From Actinomycetota bacterium (GTDB lineage: Bacteria; Actinomycetota; Acidimicrobiia; IMCC26256; VFJJ01), in assembly GCA_009886115.1 (NCBI GenBank), contig VFJJ01000069.1:54978-74977 (forward strand): a DNA stretch of 20,000 nt. The letters are read 5' to 3'. The notes under the pieces are model-generated. The model had not been told where the DNA came from, ran no database searches, and saw only the letters and a list, made by a program, of their open reading frames with translations. The stretch's first letter is position 1. Each line of letters begins with the position of its first letter. The translations under genes were made by a program, and so were the position numbers. Positions 8,798 through 20,000 of the stretch are shown here, piece by piece.

Positions 8798-9556
8798 TCA
8801 GGTCGGGTCGGTTGCGGACTCGGTCGACAGCAGGCGGCCGGCCGTCTCACTCACCCGGGCACCCAGTTCGGTCCGGCAGATGAGGAGGTCGGGCAGCCAT
8901 GGCCGTTCCTGGTTGTACATCAGCGGTGCGCCGTCGAGGCGTGTGACGTGCAGCCCGGCTGCGGTGGCAACGCCGGCGGGTGCGGCATTGTCCCACTCCC
9001 ATTGGCCACCGGCGTGGGCGTACACGTCGACCACGCCGAGGACGACAGCCATGGCCTTGGCCCCGGCCGAGCCCATGGGCACGAGGTCGGCGCCGAGCTC
9101 GTCGGCGAGCTGCTGGGTGAACGCCGGCGGTCGAGTCCGGCTCACCACGATCCGTGGGCGGGACGGAACGGGCCCGGTCGAGTTGGACGCAGGGACGCCT
9201 CCGGGGCCCGTGTGCAGGATCCGACCTTGTGCCGGCAGGCCAACAGCGGCCGCCGTGATACCCCGACCCCGCTCCCACAACGCGATGTGGACGGCCCAAT
9301 CTTCACGCCCTTCCTCGTTGTACTCGCGGGTCCCGTCGAGGGGATCGATGATCCACACGCGTTCGGCAGCGAGGCGCTTGAGGTCGTCGGCCGACTCCTC
9401 GGAGAGCACGGCATCTCCCGGGCGCTCGACCGCGAGCCGACCGAGGATGAGCCCGTCCGAACGCACATCGGCCTCGCCCGGACTGGTGGAGCGGACGGCG
9501 AGCAACAGCTCCCCGGCCGCGGCGGCGAGGTCGGCGGCGAGGCGGTGGTCGTCCAT
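8798..9556 (-). CDS. cysQ: 3'(2'),5'-bisphosphate nucleotidase CysQ (PAP phosphatase, actinobacterial type)
   Basis: [79 protein letters not shown]. Closely follows mycobacterial CysQ as recalled. ATG 9556 preceded by TACGCT. Confidence 0.92.
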
Positions 9557-9649
9557 GGGAGCGCAGCGTACCGGGAGGGGGTGTGTGCGACCGCTCCGGA
9601 TGTGCGACGCTGCCCGCACCGCACCGCACCGTGAGGGAGGAGGTCACCC

Positions 9650-10897
9650 GTGACCGCGACCGCTCGTTGGGACACGCTCGACCGGTACCTGCTGATCTCG
9701 ACCGACGGCCACGCCGGCGCCGACCTCCGCGACTACCGGCCGTACCTGGCATCGCGCTGGCTCGACGAGTTCGATGCCTGGGCCAATGCCTACGTGAACC
9801 CGTGGGGCGATCTCGTCAACCCCGACGCCGATCGCAACTGGAGCCACGAGCGCCGCGAACGCGAGCTCGACGCCGAGGGCATCGCCGCCGAGGTGCTGTT
9901 CCCCAACACCATCCCGCCGTTCTTCCCGTCGGGCTCGCTGCTCGCCCCGCTGCCCAGCGCAGCGCAGTACGAGCACCGCTGGGCCGGGCTCCAGGCCCAC
10001 AATCGGTGGCTCGCCGACCTGTGCGCCGCGCAGCCGGGCCGGCGCGCGGGCATGGCGCAGATTCTGCTGAACGATGTCGACGACGCCGTGGCTGAGATCC
10101 GTTGGGCCCGCGAGCACGGTCTCTTCGGCGGCATCCTGCTGCCCGGCGTGGCCCCCAACCATCCCGATGTCGCGCCGCTGTGGTCCGAGACCTACGAGCC
10201 CATCTGGCGTACCTGCGCCGAGCTCGACATGGTGATCAACCACCACAGCGGCGCCGGCCTCCCCGAGTACGGCATGACCGCCGCGGCTCGGGCCATCCAG
10301 CTCGTCGAGATCCCCATCTTCTCCCACCGCGCCTTGTGGCATCTGATCTTCGCCGGCGTCTTCGAGCGTCACCCATCGCTCAAGTTCGTGCTCACCGAGC
10401 AGGGGACGGGCTGGATCCCCGGCGGCCTGGCCAGCCTCGACTGGTTTCTCGGCCGAATGAAGCGGGCCGGCTCGGCCGAGGCCATGTTCGGCGGCGAGGC
10501 GGCCGCGAGACTTTCGCTCACCCCGACCGAGTACTTCGCCCGCAACTGCTGGGTCGGCGCCAGCTTCATCCGCCCCATCGAGGTCGACATCCGCCATCTC
10601 GTCGGCGTCGAGAAGATCATGTGGGGCGCCGACTACCCCCACAGCGAGGGGACGCAACCGCTCACCCGGGAGGCGCTGCGGGCGTCGTTCGCGAACGTGC
10701 CCGCCGACGAGTGCAGGCTCATGTTCGCCGGCAATGCGGCAGACGTGTACGGCTTCGACCTCGCGGCTCTCGCCGCCGTGGCCGAGCGCATCGGACCGAC
10801 CGTCGCCGAGGTGCACGTCCCCTTGGCGACGGCCGATTTCCCGACCGACACCACCTGCGGCGCCTTCGACCGCGACGCCATCATCCGGAGCTGGTAG
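9650..10897 (+). CDS. Amidohydrolase family protein (Amidohydro_2 type)
   Basis: Strong SD GGAGGAGG before GTG 9650. ISTDGHAG, ELDAEGIAAEVLFPN, AHNRWLADLC, NHHSG, GVFERHPSLKFVLTE, MWGADYPHSEGT. Confidence 0.9.
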   Translation: MTATARWDTLDRYLLISTDGHAGADLRDYRPYLASRWLDEFDAWANAYVNPWGDLVNPDADRNWSHERRERELDAEGIAAEVLFPNTIPPFFPSGSLLAPLPSAAQYEHRWAGLQAHNRWLADLCAAQPGRRAGMAQILLNDVDDAVAEIRWAREHGLFGGILLPGVAPNHPDVAPLWSETYEPIWRTCAELDMVINHHSGAGLPEYGMTAAARAIQLVEIPIFSHRALWHLIFAGVFERHPSLKFVLTEQGTGWIPGGLASLDWFLGRMKRAGSAEAMFGGEAAARLSLTPTEYFARNCWVGASFIRPIEVDIRHLVGVEKIMWGADYPHSEGTQPLTREALRASFANVPADECRLMFAGNAADVYGFDLAALAAVAERIGPTVAEVHVPLATADFPTDTTCGAFDRDAIIRSW

Positions 10898-10943
10898 CCC
10901 CGACCCCAGCCCCCAGCCCCGGGGGGTGTGGGGTGGATGGCGG
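10898..10943. other. C-tract/G-tract intergenic element between convergent stops (G-quadruplex consensus on the minus strand; imperfect hairpin possible)
   Basis: CCCC ga CCCC ag CCCCC ag CCCC (10898-10920), followed by GGGGGG tgt GGGG t GG at GG c GG. Confidence 0.6.
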
Positions 10944-12218
10944 CTACAGGGTGGCCCGCCACCACCGCGCTTGGGCGATGACGGCCGGGTCGGTCGTTAC
11001 CAGTGACGGGTCCTGGCCCAGATCGGCTGGCGTGGGCCCGATGCGGTCGGCGATGGTCCGCAGCGCGTCGGTGTCGAAGCCGTAGACGCGAGCACAGGTC
11101 TCACCCAGCAGCAAGCGGGCGTCAGCGAGCGGGACGTCGGCGAAGTCCTGGCGGAGCCGGGAGATCGTGTTGGGCCAGGTGCCCTCGGGGTGCGGATAGT
11201 CGGTGCCCCACATGGCGACGTCGCAGCCGATGGCGTGACGGCGGCGGATCTCCTCCTTCGACATGGTCGAGGCGCCGATGAAGACGTTCGTGCCGAAGTA
11301 CTCCGACGGGAGCTTCGACAGCTTGCCCGCCATCATCGCGGCCATCTTCTTGGTGGTGTGACCACCGCCGAAGTACACGTCCCACTTCCACATCATGTCG
11401 GGGGCCCAGTACGCAGCCGCCTCCGTCACGACGAACCTCAAGCCGGGGAAGCGCTCGAAGGCCCCCGAGAACAACAGATGGGCGATGGGACGGGTCGTCC
11501 ACCACACCACCTCGGCGAGATAGATCCCGATGTTGTCGCCGTACTCGTCGCGTGGGGCCTCGCCCGAGTGCACGTGGACGGGCAGGCCGTGGACCTGACA
11601 CGCGGCCCAGATCGCGTCGTACGCCACGTCGTTGTACGGCAGGCGATCGCGCCACATGGTCGGGATCATGATCCCGCGAATGCCCGGCTGCCGGGCGGCC
11701 CATTCGATCTCGGCGACACCTCGTTCGATGTCGTGACAGATCGGCACGAGCGCGATCCCGGCTCGCCGCTCGGGATGCTCCGAGCACAGCTCGGCCAGGA
11801 ACCGGTTGTGGGCCCGGGCGCCGGCGAAGGCCAGGTTGGGATCGGCGATCGCTCCCGCAGACAGCCCAGCTCCGAACGGCGGCGACTCCATCCCGGTGAT
11901 GGCGTCGCTGTCGGGGAACAGCACCTCGCCAGCCACACCGTCGGCGTCGAGCTCCTTGTCCCGCCGGGCCGGATCGTGGGCGCCCTGGAGACCTTCTGCG
12001 TGGTCGGTCTCCCAGTTCATGATGTAGTCGTAGTTCATGCGCAAGGCCTCACCGCGAGCCGCCTCTCGCTCGGCGAGGAACGCGTCGAACTGCTCGGTGT
12101 AACGAGCGTCGAGGTAAGGCCGGTACTCGTCGCAGCGCAGCCCGGCATGGCAGTCGGACGACACGATCATGTAGCGCTCGCTCGTGGGGGTCATGGCGGC
12201 GCCGGTGCGTTCGTCCAC
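10944..12218 (-). CDS. Amidohydrolase family protein (Amidohydro_2 type), paralogue of 9650..10897
   Basis: GTG 12218 lies just after the upstream gene's stop, with AAGGA; alternative ATG at 12194. VSSDCHAG, ELDADGVAGEVLFP, AHNRFLAELC, HVHSG, GAFERFPGLRFVVTE, MWGTDYPHPEGT. Confidence 0.9.
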   Translation of the reverse strand: MDERTGAAMTPTSERYMIVSSDCHAGLRCDEYRPYLDARYTEQFDAFLAEREAARGEALRMNYDYIMNWETDHAEGLQGAHDPARRDKELDADGVAGEVLFPDSDAITGMESPPFGAGLSAGAIADPNLAFAGARAHNRFLAELCSEHPERRAGIALVPICHDIERGVAEIEWAARQPGIRGIMIPTMWRDRLPYNDVAYDAIWAACQVHGLPVHVHSGEAPRDEYGDNIGIYLAEVVWWTTRPIAHLLFSGAFERFPGLRFVVTEAAAYWAPDMMWKWDVYFGGGHTTKKMAAMMAGKLSKLPSEYFGTNVFIGASTMSKEEIRRRHAIGCDVAMWGTDYPHPEGTWPNTISRLRQDFADVPLADARLLLGETCARVYGFDTDALRTIADRIGPTPADLGQDPSLVTTDPAVIAQARWWRATL

Positions 12219-12220
12219 GT

Positions 12221-13012
12221 TCAGTCCTTTGCGCCAGCCCCGAGAACCGAGAGGTCGTCGTAGCGCTGGTGCACGAACGGCAGGAGCCACTCGGCTGGGA
12301 CGGTGCCCTGGATCTCGCCGATCTGATGCGTGGCCCGCTCGGTCCAGTTGAGGTCGACCACACGGCGCACCACGAGATCGGCGATGGGGTCGAGCGGGGA
12401 GTCCTTCAGGATGATCTCGCCGTCGATCCCCTCGTGCACCCGCGACCGCTCGTGCTTCCTTCCGTACACGAGCAGCGGATCACGGTCGAGGCCGACGCCA
12501 TCGGGAGCCTGTCCGAGCTTGAAGTAGAAGTCGATCTTGTCCTTCTCGTAGGCCGGACGGGTTCCCGTGATGCGACCGCGGATCTCGCAGACCGTGAAAC
12601 CCATGCGGGCCATGACCCCTTCCACCTGATCGCCGTCACGCTTCACCCACACCTCACCGATCTTCTTGGGCTCGCCATAGGTCTCGCGCCCGCCGACGGT
12701 CGCCTGCTCGGTGGTCATCGGCATGAACAGCGGGTACTCGCCCTCGACGTCGCCGTGGCGGGCCCGCACGCCGAACCACCCAGCGCCGAACGGGCGTCCA
12801 CCGGGCATGGTGACCGTGGTGATCGTCGCCCGGACGAGGGGCCCGGCCTCCGAGGAGGGTTCAAGGGGCCGGGGCAGGATCGCCGCGATGATCTCGGGAT
12901 CGGTCTCGTAGATGCACGTGATGGCCTCCGACCAGATCTCGGCCGTGGTGGCCTCGACCTCACGGTTCCGGCGCTGAGCGGGCTGGCGCGCTGCGTAGCG
13001 AATCGTGCTCAT
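12221..13012 (-). CDS. Acetoacetate decarboxylase (ADC) family protein
   Basis: GGAGG SD before ATG 13012. YETDPEIIAAILPRPLEP, GEYPLFM, GGRETYGEPKKIG (Schiff-base Lys motif), SPLDPIADLVV. Confidence 0.85.
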   Translation of the reverse strand: MSTIRYAARQPAQRRNREVEATTAEIWSEAITCIYETDPEIIAAILPRPLEPSSEAGPLVRATITTVTMPGGRPFGAGWFGVRARHGDVEGEYPLFMPMTTEQATVGGRETYGEPKKIGEVWVKRDGDQVEGVMARMGFTVCEIRGRITGTRPAYEKDKIDFYFKLGQAPDGVGLDRDPLLVYGRKHERSRVHEGIDGEIILKDSPLDPIADLVVRRVVDLNWTERATHQIGEIQGTVPAEWLLPFVHQRYDDLSVLGAGAKD

Positions 13013-13144
13013 GGTCTCGACCTCCATTGCTTCCAGGTGGCACTTCGACGAGCCAGCGTGGCACGTGGCCGGCGCTGCCGCAACGGTGGTGTCGACCCTG
13101 GATCGAGCTGGCGACGCTGGCCGGTGTGGGCTGATCGTCGTCGC

Positions 13145-14914
13145 TCAGCGCTTGGCTGCGGTGAAGTACGGAGCTCGGCCCGCCCGGTGGTCGGTGATGT
13201 CGACAACGGCCACGACCTCGGGCCCGAAACGCTCTCGCAGCAAGGGTTCCACGCCCTGGCGCAACGTGACCTCCGAGAGCGTGCAACCCTGACAGCCTCC
13301 GACGAAGCGCAGGCGCACCGTTGCGTCGGGCGCGACGCCGGCAACCACGACCCGTCCACCGTGGGCCGCGATCGCCGGGTTGACCGAAGCGTCGAGGAAC
13401 TCGGTGATCCGCTCGGCCAGCGTGTGACCGTGACCGGGCGCACGAGCATGACCGGGACCGGGCTCGGGTCGGGGCTCGATCGCGATGGCGTCGAACGGGC
13501 CGACGAACACGCGCTCGATCGACGGATCGTGGCGGCGGATCTGACGGTCGATCGCATCCCGCATCGGCCCCAGCGCTCCCGGCGAACCCGTTGCCTCGAG
13601 GTGCACCTCGGTGTCTCGGCGCTCGACGAATCCCAGCCCACCCCCACGAGCGATGGCCGTGGGGCGCAACGACTCCTCGACGAGCCTCGCCACAGGATCG
13701 AGCGGCAGCCGCCGTGACGGCACCGATCGAACGGCCGCCGCCCGCGGCGTCGCGCCAGGCTCCTCGCCGCTCGCGGTCGCATCGAGAGCCTGCCGCAGAT
13801 CCGCGGCGATGTCGTCAAGGGCCTCCAGCCCCACCGAGATCCGCAACAGGTCGGCCGGGACCGGCGACGACGGACCCTCCACGGTCTTGCGGTGCTCGAC
13901 GAGCGTCTCGGTGCCACCGAGCGACGTCGCCCGCTTCACCAACTCCAGCCGGGACAGCACTTCCAGAGCCGCGGCCTCCCCACCACGCACCTGCACCGAG
14001 AGCATCGTGCCGAAGCCACCGTCCATCTGCCGGACCGCGATCTCATGACCCGGATGCGACACCAGGCCCGGATAGAGGACGGTCGTCACACAGTGATGAC
14101 CGTCGAGCTGCTCGGCCAGGGCCAGGGCCGTGGCGCACGAGTGGCGCACACGGACATACAGCGTGCGCATGCCCCGTAGCAGCAACCAGGCCTCCATCGG
14201 CCCGGGCACGTTGCCCGTGCTGCGACGCCAGGCCCTGATGCGTTGCACGAAGCCGTCGTCGTGGGGGAAGACGATCGCACCGGCGAGCACGTCACCGTGA
14301 CCGTTGAGGGCCTTGGTGGCGCTGTGCATCACCAGGTCGGCCCCGAGCGCCAGCGGACGGGTGAGGACGGGGGTCGACACCGTGGAGTCGACGACAACCC
14401 GGGCGTGGGCCCGATGGGCGAGCGCGACCACGGCCTCGATGTCGGTGATGTCCCACGTGGGGTTGGCTGGCGTCTCGACCCACACCAGCCGGGTCTGTCC
14501 CGGACGCAGCGCCCCGGCGAGGGCTGCGAGGTCGCCGGTGTCGACGTACTCGACGTCGACACCCCACGAGACCGCGAACTCCGACAACCACTTCCTCAGG
14601 CCCCAGTAGACGATTCGGGGAATGAGCACATGGTCGCCCGGCACGAGAGCGCAGAAGATCGACGTGGCCGCGGCCATCCCCGACGAGAACAGCATCGCCC
14701 CGGCCCCACCCTCCAGGGCCGCCAACAACCGCTCGGGCTCCTCGAACGCGGGACTGTCGGCCCTGGAGTACCCGCGGGCGTCGACCAACGTGTTGTCGGG
14801 CCGACGCTCGAACGTCGTGCTCATGTGCACCGGCGACACCAGCGCTCGCGTCGCCGGGTCGACGTGCCCCAGCGCCTGCGCTGCCAATGTCTCGGGCGAG
14901 AGCGACCAGTCCAT
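13145..14914 (-). CDS. Fusion: cystathionine gamma-synthase/lyase-family PLP enzyme + degenerate Nfu domain + NfuA-type Nfu domain (CQGC)
   Basis: N-terminal ~380 aa: YSRADSP, LAALEGG, FSSGMAA, IVYWG, WVETPANPT, VVDST, HSATK (PLP Lys), LYPGL..HPGH, ATSLGG, LLRISVGLE. C-terminal part: VNPAIAAHGGRV..VRLRFVGGCQGCTLSEVTLRQGVE..VVDITDHRAGRAPYF. Single uninterrupted frame. Confidence 0.88.
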   Translation of the reverse strand: MDWSLSPETLAAQALGHVDPATRALVSPVHMSTTFERRPDNTLVDARGYSRADSPAFEEPERLLAALEGGAGAMLFSSGMAAATSIFCALVPGDHVLIPRIVYWGLRKWLSEFAVSWGVDVEYVDTGDLAALAGALRPGQTRLVWVETPANPTWDITDIEAVVALAHRAHARVVVDSTVSTPVLTRPLALGADLVMHSATKALNGHGDVLAGAIVFPHDDGFVQRIRAWRRSTGNVPGPMEAWLLLRGMRTLYVRVRHSCATALALAEQLDGHHCVTTVLYPGLVSHPGHEIAVRQMDGGFGTMLSVQVRGGEAAALEVLSRLELVKRATSLGGTETLVEHRKTVEGPSSPVPADLLRISVGLEALDDIAADLRQALDATASGEEPGATPRAAAVRSVPSRRLPLDPVARLVEESLRPTAIARGGGLGFVERRDTEVHLEATGSPGALGPMRDAIDRQIRRHDPSIERVFVGPFDAIAIEPRPEPGPGHARAPGHGHTLAERITEFLDASVNPAIAAHGGRVVVAGVAPDATVRLRFVGGCQGCTLSEVTLRQGVEPLLRERFGPEVVAVVDITDHRAGRAPYFTAAKR

Positions 14915-14922
14915 GGCCGAGG

Positions 14923-14928
14923 ACCGTA
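14923..14928 (-). promoter_or_regulatory. Putative -10 box TACGGT, 8 nt before the fusion gene ATG (leaderless-type)
   Basis: Minus strand reads ggggc TACGGT cctcggcc ATG GAC TGG. Confidence 0.5.
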
Positions 14929-15073
14929 GCCCCGGACCAGGATCACGCGAGGAGCAGGCGCGGCCGCCGGAGCCCGTTGGTGCGCGAGCGGTCGCAGGTG
15001 CTCGATCGGTCGACCGACGGCGGTGGGCGGCTCCGGGTCGGTCCGCCCGGAATGCCGACCACCACCTCGATCG

Positions 15074-15334
15074 TCAATGGCAGGCCGTTGTTCCCGAGTC
15101 GGTGAAGGTCTGACCGGCGACCGGGAGGAAGTTCCACGAGCAGCTGCCGGCCGAGAGCGTCAGCTTGAGCACGCCGAAGGTCGTGTCGTTGGCAGCCTCG
15201 CGCCGTGCATCCGGTCTGAGCACGTTGTAGTCGTGATTCCCTGGCGAGGGCAGGGTACGCGCCTTGTGGCGACCCCACGTCGGGTTGTAGCAGTTCGTGA
15301 ACTCGGCGGCCGTAGGATTCCGGCGGAGGGGCAC
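15074..15334 (-). pseudogene. Metallophosphoesterase (calcineurin-like/purple-acid-phosphatase-type) remnant with N-terminal loss and internal deletion
   Basis: TAAEFTNCYNPTWGRHKARTLPSPGNHDY is joined within about 12 aa to the family's typical C-terminus NDTTFGVLKLTL..SCSWNFLPVAGQTFTDSGTTACH. Only 86 aa, and the other metal-binding motifs are absent. Confidence 0.7.
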
Positions 15335-15360
15335 GACACCCCGTCGATGAGGAGGACGTC

Positions 15361-15795
15361 ATGTCGGTCAAGTACACGCCGTCGCACTTCGGGATCTGCG
15401 TCACCGACCTGCAGCGGTCGCTGCGCTTCTACTGCGAGGGCCTCGGGTTCGAGGCGGCCGAGACCTACGTGATCGGCAACGAGTTCTCGGCTGGGTTGGA
15501 AGTCGACGGCGAGGTCGACCTCGACGCCGTGTTCATCCGCAATGACGCCATGGCCATCGAGCTCCTCGCCTACCGGTCGCCGCATCCCACAGGACGCCCG
15601 TCGGCCAGCCGGGGCCAGCTCGGCCTCACCCACTTCGGGTTCTGGGTCGACGACGTCGACGAGGCCGCGGCCCGACTCGTCGCGCACGGCGGCACGCTGC
15701 TCACCGGCACCCGGTGCAAGACCGACACCGTCGAGATGATCTTCGTCGAGGACCCCGACGGCGTGCGCGTCGAGCTCATGAAGTCGAACCTGTAG
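15361..15795 (+). CDS. VOC / glyoxalase-bleomycin resistance family protein
   Basis: SD GAGGAGG at 15349-15355. SHFGICVTDLQRSLRFY..LGF, IELL.Y, GLTHFGFWVDDVD, FVEDPDGVRVELM. Confidence 0.9.
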   Translation: MSVKYTPSHFGICVTDLQRSLRFYCEGLGFEAAETYVIGNEFSAGLEVDGEVDLDAVFIRNDAMAIELLAYRSPHPTGRPSASRGQLGLTHFGFWVDDVDEAAARLVAHGGTLLTGTRCKTDTVEMIFVEDPDGVRVELMKSNL

Positions 15796-16811: not shown

Positions 16812-17474
16812 TCAGACCGCCAGCCCGGCTCCGCCGATCCGGTCGAGCACGGCCAGGATGAGCGCCGCCTGCTCGTCGGGTGAGCCATCGGAGGGGCGCA
16901 GCACCAGCTCGGGCGCCGACGGCGGTTCGTAGGGATCGTCGATTCCGGTGAAGCCGGTGATCGTGCCGGCGCGGGCCAACGCGTACAGGCCCTTGGGATC
17001 ACGCGCCTCGCACACCTCGATGGGGGTGTCGACGAACACCTCCACGAACGGCACTCCCGCGACGGCATGGACCTCCCGGGCCCGCTCCCGGCCGTGACGG
17101 TACGGGGAGATGAGCGGAACGATCGCCATCACGCCGGCGTCGGCGAACAGGCGAGCCACCTCGGAGGCCCGGCGCACGTTCTCGTCGCGGTCGGACGGGC
17201 TGAAACCCAAGTCGCCGTTGAGCCCGTGGCGCAGGTTGTCGCCGTCGAGCATGTACGCCGGACGGCCGGCGCGCACCAGCAACCGCTCCAGCACCACGGC
17301 GACGGTCGATTTCCCCGAGCCCGAGAGGCCGGTGAGCCAGACGGTCGCACCAGCAAAGCCCAACGATGAGCGCCGATCGGCCGCGGCCATCGACCCGGGA
17401 TGCCACACGACATTCGGCGAGACCCGCCCCGGCGTCACCGGCGCGCCCCGGTCGGCGGGCTCCGCCGGGCTCAC
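16812..17474 (-). CDS. cysC: Adenylyl-sulfate (APS) kinase
   Basis: C-terminal part of ORF 16812..18872. GTG 17474 overlaps the cysN TGA; the exact start is uncertain. [63 protein letters not shown]. Confidence 0.93.
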
Positions 17475-18727
17475 TGGGTGGGACCGAGGATCATCCCGGC
17501 CGCAACGGTGGCGTTGGTGACCTCGTCGACCAGGATGAACGAACCGGTGGCCCGGTTGCGCCGGTACTCGTCGTACAGGAGCGGCTGCGTCGTGCGCAGC
17601 GAGACCCGGCCGATCTCGTTGAGCGCCAACCCATCGATGCCTTCCTCGCGATGCAGCGTGTTGATGTCGAGCCGGTAGTTGAGGTTCTTCACCAGCGCCC
17701 GGGCCGATCGGGTCGTGTGCTTGATCGTGTACTTGGCCCCCGCGGTGAGACGAGCCTGCTCGGACATCCAGCAGATCATGGCGTCGACGTCTTGCCCCAC
17801 GGTCGGCTGGTTGTGGCGCCGGCAGATCATGTCGCCGCGCGACACGTCGATCTCGTCTTCGAGCCGGATGGTCACCGACATGGGTGCGAATGCCTCGCCG
17901 ATCGGCCCGTCGGCCGTGTCGATCGAGGCGATGCGCGACGTGAAGCCCGACGGGAGCACGACGACCTCGTCGCCGGGCTTGAACGTGCCCGAGGCCACGG
18001 TGCCGGCGTAGCCGCGGTAGTCGTGCCACTCGTCGCTCATGGGCCTGATCACGTACTGGACGGGGAAACGGGCGTCGATGTGGTTGCGGTCGGAGGCGAT
18101 GTGGACCTCCTCCAGATGGTGCAACAACGACGGCCCTTGGTACCACGGCGTGTTCGCCGAGCGGTCGACCACGTTGTCGCCGAGGAGCGCCGAGACTGGG
18201 ATGAACGCCAGGTCGGTCACGTCGAGCTTGGCGGCGAACTGGCGAAACTCGGCTTTGACGTTCTCGAAGACCTGCTGGTCCCAGTCGACGAGGTCCATCT
18301 TGTTCACGCACAGCACGAGATGCGGGATGCGCAGCAGCGAGGCGATGAACGAGTGCCGACGGCTCTGCTCGAGCACTCCCTTGCGAGCGTCGATGAGCAC
18401 CAGGGCCAGATCGGCCGTGGACGCCCCTGTGACCATGTTGCGGGTGTACTGCGTGTGACCGGGCGTGTCGGCGATGATGAACTTTCGCTTGGGCGTGGCG
18501 AAGTAGCGGTAGGCGACGTCGATCGTGATGCCCTGCTCGCGCTCGGCCCGCAGCCCGTCGGTGAGCAGCGCCAGGTTCGTGTAGTCGAAGCCCTTGTCGC
18601 GGCTGGTGCGCTCGACCGCCTCGAGCTGGTCCTCGAAGATGGCCTTGGAGTCGAAGAGCAAGCGCCCGATGAGCGTCGACTTCCCGTCGTCGACCGACCC
18701 AGCCGTCGCGAAACGGAGGAGCTCCAT
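17471..18727 (-). CDS. cysN: Sulfate adenylyltransferase subunit 1 (GTPase)
   Basis: [92 protein letters not shown]. Confidence 0.97.
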
Positions 18728-18759: not shown

Positions 18760-19686
18760 CTAGAAGTACCCCTCTTTCTTGCGGTCTTCCATCCCAGCTT
18801 CGCTGATGCGGTCGTCGGCCCGGGTGGCACCCCGCTCGGTGATACGAGTGGCCGCGACCTCGCGTATGACATCGTCGACGGTCGCTGCCGGTGATTCCAC
18901 GGCCCCCGTGCACGAGGCGTCGCCCACGGTGCGGAACCGGACCGTGGCCTCGAAGAGATCCTCGCCGTCGCCTCGGGTCACGAACTCCGTGTCGGCGAGC
19001 AGCATGCCGTCGCGGCGAAAGACCATGCGCCGATGCGCGTAGTAGATGGCCGGTATCTCGATGCCGTCGTCGGCGATGTACTGCCAGATGTCGAGCTCGG
19101 TCCAGTTGCTCAGAGGGAAGACCCGGATGTGCTCGCCCGTCCGATGCCGGCCGTTGTAGAGGCTCCACAGCTCGGGCCGCTGGTTCTTCGGGTCCCATTG
19201 GCCGAACTCGTCACGGAAGCTGAACACCCGTTCCTTGGCCCGGGCCTTCTCCTCGTCGCGCCGGGCACCACCGAACACGGCGTCGTAACGCCCGTCCTCG
19301 ATCGAGCGCAAGAGCGTGGCCGTCTGGAGCCGGTTCCGGCTCGCCCGTGGACCGCGCTCCTCGGCGACCCGTCCGGCGTCGATGTCGTCTTGCACCGAGC
19401 CCACGACCAGCTTCACGCCGGTGCGGGCCACCGCACGATCGCGGAACTCGATGACCTCGGGGAAGTTGTGCCCCGTGTCGACATGCATCACGGGGAACGG
19501 CACGCGCGCCGGCCAGAAGGCCTTCTCGGCCAAGCGCAGCATGACGATCGAGTCCTTGCCACCCGAGAACAGGAGGACCGGCCGCTCGAACTCGGCCGCA
19601 ACCTCCCTGATCACGTGGATCGACTCCGCTTCGAGCGCCTTGAGATGCGAGAGCTCGAAGAACGACGTGGTGCCAGCAGTGCTCAT
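18760..19686 (-). CDS. cysD: Sulfate adenylyltransferase subunit 2
   Basis: [91 protein letters not shown] upstream of ATG 19686. Confidence 0.97.
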
Positions 19687-19769
19687 GCGCTCCCTCTCGA
19701 CCGAGCGACGATACCTGACCAGATGAGTCGGGTTTCGTAGCGTGGGCCCGTCCTCCCGGTGGACGTTGA

Positions 19770-20000
19770 GTGAACGGGCCGCCAGGCAAGGAGATGCACT
19801 ACTTCGACCGGAACTACGAGCGGGGCATCGACTGGTACCGGAGCCGCTTCGTCGACGCACGACCCGAAGAGCTGATCTTCGACGCCACTCCCTCGTACAT
19901 GTACCGCCCCGAGGCCACCAAACGCATGGCTCACGACCTGCCCGGGGCCCGGATCCTGATCTCGCTTCGCAACCCCATCGACCGGGCGTACTCGCAGTAC
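19770..20000 (+). CDS. Sulfotransferase (PAPS-dependent), runs off the window; N-terminal PSB loop apparently missing, so possibly a pseudogene
   Basis: Own translation: VNGPPGKEMHYFDRNYERGIDWYRSRF...DATPSYMY....RMAHDLPGARILISLRNPIDRAYSQY. Contains KExxYF, ATPxY and the 3'-PB motif RNPxDRAxS. In-frame TGA at 19767-19769. Confidence 0.8.
   Translation, partial: MNGPPGKEMHYFDRNYERGIDWYRSRFVDARPEELIFDATPSYMYRPEATKRMAHDLPGARILISLRNPIDRAYSQY

Follow-up and report, generated by a model that had tools for sequence, protein, structure and literature searches.

A trans-sulfuration-family enzyme joined to a tandem Nfu unit in environmental bacteria

Anatomy and recurrence of the fusion protein

The assembly of iron-sulfur (Fe-S) clusters is thought to take its sulfur from desulfurases of the NifS, IscS and SufS type, which carry it as an enzyme persulfide. 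In the NifS-NifU, IscS-IscU and SufS-SufU/E pairs, a sulfur-mobilising enzyme that depends on pyridoxal 5'-phosphate (PLP) is physically coupled to a cluster-binding protein, and NifU itself ends in an Nfu domain. A coupling of this general kind was found in a 20,000-nucleotide stretch of DNA (referred to here as the window) from an Acidimicrobiia assembly of the Actinomycetota (GCA_009886115.1, contig VFJJ01000069.1, positions 54,978 to 74,977), where a single open reading frame (ORF) of 589 codons with an ATG start (window positions 13145-14914, reverse strand) joins a PLP enzyme of Cys/Met metabolism to two Nfu-like modules. Compared with the desulfurase-scaffold pairs, the PLP enzyme is of another family and has no conserved persulfide cysteine, and its partner corresponds to a late-carrier Nfu, not to a U-type scaffold. 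This PLP-Nfu family represents a natural test of whether sulfur enters cluster or persulfide chemistry by another route.

A first-pass annotation, made from the letters of the window and a list of its ORFs, had proposed one continuous PLP-Nfu frame, and this was confirmed by the ORF, its translation and Pfam matches to PF01053 and PF01106. The motifs it had read from the PLP half (YSR, IVYWG, DST, HSATK, SLGG and RISVGLE) were all found in the translation, and the positions it had given for the lysine codon of HSATK and for the CQGC codons (Table 1) were exact on recount. The division of the protein into domains and modules is assigned with high confidence, and the whole combines known domains in a conserved, uncharacterised way, its interface being predicted and its operon partner unexpected. 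By profile, CxxC motif and fold, the protein falls within PF01053 and PF01106; it falls outside the named trans-sulfuration equivalogs, NfuA, the plastid NFU domain order and the desulfurases.

In a protein search for which the 120 best clusters were considered, 116 (the query included) were shown to combine PF01053 and PF01106 in proteins of 540-598 aa, with 53-83% identity and 97-100% query coverage, and the two nearest relatives (82 and 76% identity) are fused along their whole length. An ESM Atlas cluster of 200 members carries PF01053 in 100% and PF01106 in 95% of them, under an automatic name only, and the names found in databases were likewise automatic ('cystathionine gamma-synthase', 'PLP-dependent transferase' and 'NIF system FeS cluster a...'). 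The first-pass annotation had reckoned with an architecture that was already common and characterised; its commonness is evident from these counts, while full-text searches for the architecture (subscription journals lying outside them) gave no description of it among the papers listed, as judged by title or abstract. The fusion is real and common in environmental bacteria, and apparently unstudied. The remaining four clusters (P0004, P0005, P0006 and P0008; 757-769 aa) consist of two tandem PF01053 domains without Nfu, at 52-56% identity to the PLP domain; such a covalent PLP-domain dimer is unusual for the PF01053 family.

The PLP half matches PF01053 over residues 8-377, covering profile positions 1-380 of 381 (339 bits, cut-off 27; E 3e-101). 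Its nearest solved structures are Thermobifida fusca cystathionine gamma-lyase (CGL; 8sf4, 44% identity) and the mycobacterial (Mycobacterium ulcerans, 3qhx) and corynebacterial MetB. The full-length model (predicted local distance difference test score, pLDDT, 80; predicted template modelling score 0.85) matches 8sf4 with a Foldseek template modelling (TM) score of 0.92 and a root-mean-square deviation of 2.2 Å; taking 8sf4 and 3qhx together, the same fold is shared with target-normalised TM scores of 0.92-0.94 and 42-44% identity over ~375 residues. Enzymes of this family employ a Schiff-base lysine, an aspartate to the pyridine nitrogen, a stacking tyrosine, a carboxylate arginine and a tyrosine and arginine from the partner subunit, and the PLP lysine, the aspartate, the stacking tyrosine, the carboxylate arginine and the partner-subunit YxR are common to CGL, MetB and the window enzyme. 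K201, D176, Y49, R51, R358 and E336 are invariant in all 116 fused sequences and Y103 is present in at least 90%; K201, D176 and Y103 align with the same residues of 8sf4.

In contrast to CGL and MetB, the window enzyme has YW, not YGG, after the stacking tyrosine, as part of a clade motif YW(G/A)LRxWL where solved relatives show YGGTxR, and a shortened loop with the clade motif EHRxSxEGP replaces the longer EHPxxMTHA-type loop (a five-residue gap); the 190-residue tandem Nfu extension is absent from all solved relatives. No NCBIfam equivalog cut-off was reached, the scores being 364 against 513 for NF005871 (gamma-synthase), 313 against 440 for NF005758 (gamma-lyase), 289 against 550 for TIGR01328 (methionine gamma-lyase) and 275 against 510 for TIGR01325 (O-succinylhomoserine sulfhydrylase). 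A stand-alone sister enzyme (L042) also falls below NF005871 (359 against 513). The class-V profile of cysteine desulfurases, PF00266, gave 18.5 bits, below its cut-off of 21.5. Since none of the cysteines in residues 1-385 is invariant among the 116 fused sequences, an enzyme persulfide of the NifS type is excluded; Cys73, which is frequent in relatives, is an alanine in the window protein. The PLP half is a catalytically intact enzyme from the clade of CGL and cystathionine gamma-synthase, where it falls in a sub-clade of its own; stand-alone enzymes belong to this sub-clade as well.

For the Nfu half, the closest described proteins are the plastid NFUs, which are characterised as pairing a redox-active CXXC NFU domain with a second NFU domain that is redox-inactive (PMC7851846). 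The window protein resembles Arabidopsis NFU2/CnfU (2z51), and NFU1-3 generally, in having two NFU modules of which one is CxxC-bearing and one Cys-less; compared with them, its order is reversed (Cys-less first), its NfuA-like tail has an extra K[RS] end, and the unit is tied to a PLP enzyme, by fusion or within an operon, instead of being free-standing. PF01106 matches in two stretches, the better at residues 503-570 (73.3 bits, cut-off 27), in agreement with the Nfu assignment of the C-terminus made at first pass. Both modules (407-472 and 499-572) were predicted to adopt an alpha-beta-beta-alpha-beta fold in the full-length model and in a model of residues 399-589 (pLDDT 86), joined by low-confidence linkers. 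The first-pass naming of both as Nfu domains is correct as to fold; the upstream one lacks cysteines and resembles a docking module. C541 and C544 are the only invariant cysteines of the entire fusion protein in the 116 fused sequences, and where the CxxC module has GGCQGC, in the loop that precedes helix 2, the Cys-less module has an invariant G443-S444 (GSPGA), together with an invariant R423-G424.

A profile built from 32 tandem modules matched Arabidopsis NFU2 (2z51; E 2.6e-20) in two stretches of swapped order, the CxxC module aligning with the first (CxxC) domain of NFU2 and the Cys-less module with the second, as well as with 1th5. The best fold match of the Nfu half was 2z51, followed among the top matches by 2m5o, 1veh, 1th5 and 2jnv (human NFU1 C-terminal domain, HIRIP5 and rice NFU). 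The likeness to NfuA of E. coli and Azotobacter that the first-pass annotation had seen in the tail was upheld: the C-terminal Nfu and the DxTDH..PYY tail are alike, with a match to the C-terminal 87 positions of TIGR03341 (104-190; 84 bits against a whole-protein cut-off of 269). The N-terminal domain of NfuA serves as an adaptor, and the logic of a Cys-less adaptor followed by a CxxC carrier is shared, but the adaptor of the window protein is a degenerate Nfu module and not a degenerate A-type (IscA-like) domain, no A-type domain being detected. The match to TIGR02000 (NifU) was weak. The Nfu half is a tandem unit that is plastid-NFU-like in reverse order, with an NfuA-like tail.

A search with the 191-residue tandem module returned 2575 matches at E <=0.001, seven of them at E <=1e-30, and Pfam was applied to 40 of the 150 listed. 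Among the scanned matches were truncated fusions of PLP and Nfu, tandem Nfu proteins of 176-214 aa that stand alone (the split form described below) and proteins with Nfu_N and two NifU domains. An xxxK[RSKG] extension of the tail was observed in PLP-associated Nfu and was absent from the three other Nfu with an intact C-terminus that were read (P0137, P0180 and P0200, the first two being of the Nfu_N type). Another uncharacterised Nfu architecture, Nfu_N with NifU and DUF6522, occurs in P0183, P0202 and P0252 (394-425 aa), and in P0166, a fragment of 230 aa, the C-terminal end of a sulfatase runs into one CxxC NifU domain, either as another type of Nfu fusion or as a chimera. A sulfatase gene was also observed directly upstream of one PLP-Nfu gene (L002, 4861-7845).

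Fused, split and stand-alone loci and a recurrent ligase gene

A scan of species-representative genomes yielded 599 matched stretches, from which 80 loci were kept and sorted using family-alignment hidden Markov models (HMMs) over stop-to-stop ORFs. PLP and Nfu were found in a single frame at 21 of these loci, from Methylomirabilota/Rokuibacteriota, Vicinamibacterales and other Acidobacteriota, Entotheonella (Tectimicrobiota), Acidimicrobiia (Actinomycetota) and Alpha- and Gammaproteobacteria (Pseudomonadota). Eight loci (L016-L018, L021, L022, L025, L026 and L028) hold a PLP ORF followed by a tandem Nfu in another frame; one (L020) is fragmented over several frames and one (L023) is ended by a contig edge. 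The other 49 encode a stand-alone PLP enzyme (53-64% identity, from residue 1 to ~380) with no match to the Nfu HMM within ~8 kb.

At the eight split junctions, the start codon of the Nfu gene overlaps or abuts the stop codon of the PLP gene (GTGA at four, TGATG, TGAGCGTG, a GTG placed 11 nt ahead of the stop and TAG-GGAGG-N9-ATG at one each), and several have a GGAGG-like site 5' of the Nfu start; these loci are therefore true, translationally coupled two-gene operons. Frameshift errors as the source of the split forms were rejected, since all eight junctions have a start codon in this position. The two genes meet within the stretch that corresponds to linker 1 of the fusion protein. In two further loci (L027 and L045), an apparent N-terminal extension of ~420 residues was rejected, as it contains no Pfam domain and a major facilitator superfamily gene lies there in another frame. 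The PLP-Nfu genes of these two loci are near-identical (branch lengths of 0.003 and 0) and are labelled Acidobacteria and Candidatus Rokuibacteriota, respectively, which suggests a binning or labelling conflict.

A quick IQ-TREE phylogeny of the PLP domain (82 rows, 384 columns; a short search with support from the Shimodaira-Hasegawa-like approximate likelihood ratio test, SH-aLRT) was rooted with the metY-like paralogue found at two Entotheonella loci; L020, whose PLP pieces were all too short, was omitted. The Nfu-associated PLP domains all fell in one clade of 32 rows (SH-aLRT 99), comprising 22 fused forms, the eight split forms, L023 and one stand-alone enzyme, L057, which genuinely lacks Nfu, a convergent gene following its PLP gene. 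The eight split forms constitute a single nested clade (SH-aLRT 98), and the window protein is sister to two fused forms from Acidimicrobiia, L003 and L031 (SH-aLRT 94). On this rooting, the PLP-Nfu association appears to have arisen once, split once and been lost at least once.

These data also bear on whether the fusion is an artefact in which loss of a stop codon, frameshifting or misassembly has merged two adjacent genes. The eight loci whose two genes meet exactly in the linker, and the break-up of L020 into several frames, count in favour of such an origin, and the first-pass annotation had itself allowed that relatives might encode the parts separately and that the window copy might have lost a stop; separate genes do occur, yet no stop was lost in the window copy. 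The same single-frame architecture is present in the 116 clusters and in 21 independent loci from five phyla, the two nearest relatives are fused over their full length, the split forms make up one clade, derived from within the fused forms, and the gene is even in base composition throughout. An artefact is accordingly given a negligible likelihood and is refuted for practical purposes.

One neighbouring gene, and no other, was shown to recur with the pair. It follows immediately downstream, as a rule only a few bases away and with the strand shared, and encodes a protein of ~410-445 aa with ATP-grasp_4 and LAL_C2 domains. Searched with its own HMM, it was detected in 16 of the 28 Nfu-bearing sources that had at least 250 nt of downstream sequence: at all seven assessable split loci, at eight of 20 fused loci and at the broken L020. 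It was detected at none of the 49 stand-alone loci, nor at L023, nor in the window, where 13 kb downstream was examined. At L003, the ligase gene is on the opposite strand. At L014, an IS110-family transposase gene (10054-11103) is inserted between the PLP-Nfu and ligase genes, which are 4 nt apart in the sister genome L010, where the ligase gene occupies 9720-10979. The nearest solved relatives of the encoded ligase are the dipeptide ligases BL00235 (E 3e-31, the best) and BacD, and no NCBIfam cut-off was reached; the two domains are shared with the L-amino-acid ligases BL00235, BacD and LdmS at low identity.

A fragment (P0151) and four longer proteins (P0272-P0275) show NifU, in the four longer ones with Nfu_N as well, continuing into the ATP-grasp ligase. 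As the junctions are all different and the four longer proteins are single members without contigs, an Nfu-ligase or triple fusion was not accepted, and these proteins are treated as possible chimeras. The idea that the ligase loads the invariant Lys588 of a carrier protein, by analogy with LysW/LysX, was dropped as a main alternative, given that the ligase resembles ligases of free amino acids and that the PLP enzyme keeps its alpha-carboxylate arginine.

Predicted docking and competing readings

A complex of two copies of residues 1-385 with a partner comprising residues 400-589 was modelled using the 116-sequence alignment. The model scored 0.61 (runs of 0.63, 0.61 and 0.53), compared with 0.01 for the best of three controls; the mark applied to such scores is reached by 116 of 157 solved complexes and two of 215 mismatched pairs, a calibration that is only rough here given the model's own alignment and its three chains. 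The runs share at least 75% of contacts, with a partner pLDDT of at least 71. In the model, residues 95-137 of one PLP subunit form the surface on which the Cys-less module (414-462) packs, and the other subunit is touched by the CxxC module (532, 545-553 and 568-576) at residues 91-92, 138-139, 170 and 220-228. None of the solved structures returned by structure searches of both halves joins the two folds, so the pass does not reflect recall of a known complex. On the basis of the model, the Cys-less module is predicted to be a docking module.

Support for this arrangement was obtained from conservation. W229 is present in 30 of 30 Nfu-associated enzymes and in none of 48 stand-alone ones, and R231 in 90 and 2%, respectively; these are the only PLP positions that separate the two groups, and they adjoin the predicted contact patch of the CxxC module at residues 220-228. 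The agreement between these two residues and the modelled contacts represents the strongest internal support for a defined complex. The single clade of fused and split forms and the docking model together indicate a functional, and probably also a physical, coupling of the two halves.

In the favoured reading, the PLP domain, which has no catalytic cysteine, would act on cysteine, cystine, homocysteine or cystathionine, cleaving a C-S bond so that sulfide or a small-molecule persulfide is released. The released sulfur would be captured by the docked CxxC module, and paired CxxC modules in the PLP tetramer would assemble or repair a bridging [4Fe-4S] cluster for transfer to client proteins. Such a route would be independent of NifS, IscS and SufS and would work like C-DES of Synechocystis with a built-in NFU carrier. 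That sulfur from a C-S lyase is captured by a docked Nfu for cluster handling is put at somewhat below an even chance, as the domains and catalytic residues are intact and invariant, fused and split forms share one clade, and the docking model, the W229/R231 patch and the Nfu matches are consistent with it. Among known chemistry, the sulfide needed to reconstitute clusters in vitro can come from E. coli beta-cystathionase and from O-acetylserine sulfhydrylases, and reduction of desulfurase persulfides by human NFU has been reported. C-DES has a NifS-like fold and is thus homologous to the window enzyme no further than fold type I; the likeness is one of working principle, the window enzyme having an attached carrier and C-DES none. 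C-DES is described as a PLP-dependent C-S lyase for cyst(e)ine that lacks an active-site cysteine, yields a product persulfide (cysteine persulfide) or sulfide and can feed the formation of Fe-S in ferredoxin (PMC8300815).

Several observations weigh against sulfur transfer from the PLP enzyme to Nfu. C541 and C544 lie outside the confident contact residues of the complex model. No suf, isc or nif genes were found among 81 annotated neighbour ORFs in nine loci, nor in the window, and the recurrence of the ligase has no role in a scheme confined to Fe-S clusters. The fused proteins of L003 and L031 are only ~520 aa long, with a weak match (L003) or none (L031) to the HMM of the Cys-less module; the docking module may be reduced in this Acidimicrobiia lineage, though it is kept in the window protein. 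Because no equivalog cut-off was reached, the PLP half can be assigned to its family but to no named function. Furthermore, the 48 stand-alone sisters compared share the active-site and clade motifs, so the PLP chemistry predates Nfu, exists without it and is not specialised for Fe-S clusters; this shared active site and the ligase are the chief facts that the favoured reading leaves unexplained.

The ligase would find a place in a small-molecule pathway, in which the PLP enzyme, Nfu and the ligase make or salvage a sulfur amino acid, dipeptide or thiol (for example one derived from homocysteine or cysteine). The PLP enzyme would then run in the synthase or sulfhydrylase direction, a persulfide on the CxxC motif or the sulfide of a cluster would act as donor or carrier, and the ligase would add a second amino acid. 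The presence of the ligase gene downstream of 16 of the 28 assessable sources, all seven split loci included, and of none of the stand-alone ones fits this pathway, as do the kinship of the ligase to the dipeptide-forming BL00235 and BacD, the homoserine O-acyltransferase and metY-like genes of Entotheonella, the cysDNC genes of the window, and the fact that the nearest NCBIfam model is a cystathionine gamma-synthase. As a loose precedent, LdmS, of the same enzyme class, is presented as making L-Asp-L-Met and as tied to Met/Cys regulation in S. aureus (PMC9486568). The 12 assessable sources without a ligase nearby, among them the window, point the other way, and the NifU-ATP-grasp single proteins may be assembly chimeras; no further gene recurs with the pair, and no S-adenosylmethionine or other riboswitch was found upstream in the window or in 18 Nfu-bearing loci at Rfam gathering thresholds. 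No Nfu domain is known to serve as sulfur donor to a PLP enzyme, which also counts against such a pathway, and it is considered unlikely.

Alternatively, the cluster of the Nfu domain, or the dithiol or disulfide state of its CxxC motif, would sense Fe-S clusters, oxygen or thiols and switch the PLP enzyme, thereby tuning the breakdown of cysteine or homocysteine or the production of H2S. In the complex model, Nfu spans both PLP subunits near helix 104-114, which follows the active-site Tyr103, and near helix 221-233, a predicted placement that would suit allostery; the identical active-site motifs of the sisters imply that catalysis needs no Nfu, and L057 lost its Nfu from within the Nfu clade. 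Against a switch, the NfuA-like tail and the Cys-less module are kept even where the genes are separate, as expected of a working partner rather than a regulator, and the ligase would be left without a role; Nfu domains are known as cluster carriers and not as sensors. Regulation of this kind is regarded as improbable, and were the protein only a regulated lyase, it would still show clearly how domains fuse and come apart, with an interface that is predicted. The computed evidence does not separate flow of sulfur from the PLP enzyme to Nfu from sensing or regulation by Nfu.

Returning to the capture of C-S lyase sulfur by Nfu, a wider form of it would make the PLP-Nfu pair a self-contained sulfur system free of NifS, IscS and SufS and, with the ligase, a hitherto unrecognised three-part module linking the turnover of sulfur amino acids to the supply of Fe-S clusters or persulfide in soil and marine bacteria that are widespread; this is considered doubtful. 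The hosts (Acidimicrobiia, Methylomirabilota/Rokubacteria, Entotheonella, Vicinamibacterales and marine Proteobacteria) are abundant and mostly uncultured, and the module may matter for the sulfur and iron economy of their environments. The family also offers a handle for the discovery of function in a large unnamed sub-clade of trans-sulfuration enzymes and in an uncharacterised L-amino-acid ligase.

Feature coordinates, signals and gene neighbourhood

The features of the fusion gene and its neighbours in the window are collected in Table 1.

Table 1. Positions of the fusion gene, its parts and neighbouring genes in the window
Feature	Position	Strand	Remarks
PLP-Nfu fusion coding sequence	13145..14914	-	589 codons, stop at 13145-13147; 53-83% identity to homologues over the full length
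Cys/Met-metabolism PLP domain, residues 8-377	13784..14893	-	PF01053, E 3e-101
Lys201 codon, PLP Schiff-base lysine in HSATK	14312..14314	-	Invariant in 116/116 fused; aligned with SxTK lysine of 8sf4
W229-R230-R231 codons, surface helix patch of Nfu-associated enzymes	14222..14230	-	Conservation comparison and complex model
Linker 1, Ala/Pro-rich, residues ~380-405	13700..13777	-	pLDDT <50 at 386-403; variable and gapped in alignment
Cys-less Nfu-like module, residues 407-472, predicted docking module	13499..13696	-	Second PF01106 stretch
Linker 2, residues 473-498, variable	13421..13498	-	Low pLDDT at 477-495; gapped in alignments
CxxC Nfu module, residues 499-572, presumed [4Fe-4S]-binding	13199..13420	-	PF01106 at 503-570
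C541-Q-G-C544 codons	13283..13294	-	Both Cys invariant in 116/116 fused and 32/32 tandem-Nfu modules
C-terminal tail, residues 573-589, DxTDH...P[FY][FY]xxxK[RSKG]	13148..13198	-	H576, P582 and K588 invariant
cysD	18760-19998	-	
cysN	17474-18727	-	
cysC	16815-17474	-	220-aa complete adenosine 5'-phosphosulfate (APS) kinase
Glyoxalase-family gene	15361-15795	Opposite to fusion gene	Flanks the fusion gene
Acetoacetate-decarboxylase-family gene	12221-13027	-	117-nt gap to the fusion gene, own GGAGG
CysQ-like inositol-monophosphatase-family gene	8798-9619	-	Further downstream

The position of the ATG start agrees with the N-termini of homologues in the alignment, and base composition is uniform along the gene. 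A -10 box of its own, which the first-pass annotation had ascribed to the fusion gene, was not supported, as scans of 12900-15500 for sigma-70 promoters and for intrinsic terminators returned zero sites; by eye, a TANNNT-like hexamer lies 9 nt 5' of the ATG, without a Shine-Dalgarno sequence there.

The first-pass statement that cysDNC and cysQ lie nearby was borne out by the cysD, cysN, cysC and CysQ-like genes located in the window. Across the 80 loci, none of the window neighbours, cysDNC and cysQ included, was found to recur beside relatives of the fusion gene, and a conserved link was rejected. CysN of the window is 80-82% identical to proteins named as Acidimicrobiales, and a 96% CysN relative and the 82% fused homologue may be encoded together in a sister genome, with linkage between cysN and the fusion gene conserved there. 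A frameshifted cysNC gene was considered and rejected, given that the cysN stop and cysC start overlap in GTGA and that the cysC product is a complete APS kinase; a 686-aa ORF in the cysC frame spans the cysNC region and accounts for the first impression of a frameshift. A 3-hydroxyisobutyrate-dehydrogenase-like gene was identified upstream of the fusion gene and amidohydrolase genes downstream of it. In the 450-nt gap upstream, an ORF of 86 aa (15074-15334, reverse strand) with a GNHDY-like motif has no Pfam match and, judged by eye, may be a remnant consisting of the two ends of a metallophosphoesterase without its middle.

In two Entotheonella loci (L004, 5497-7998, reverse strand, and L019), the genes divergent from the fusion gene are one for a homoserine O-acyltransferase (PF04204) and a metY-like PF01053 gene; no other neighbourhood has a clear flavour of methionine biosynthesis. 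The sole Rfam match was to a fragment of a group II intron (D1-D4; RF02003, 66 bits) at L009 (11576-11697, reverse strand), located ~1.8 kb downstream of the PLP-Nfu gene.

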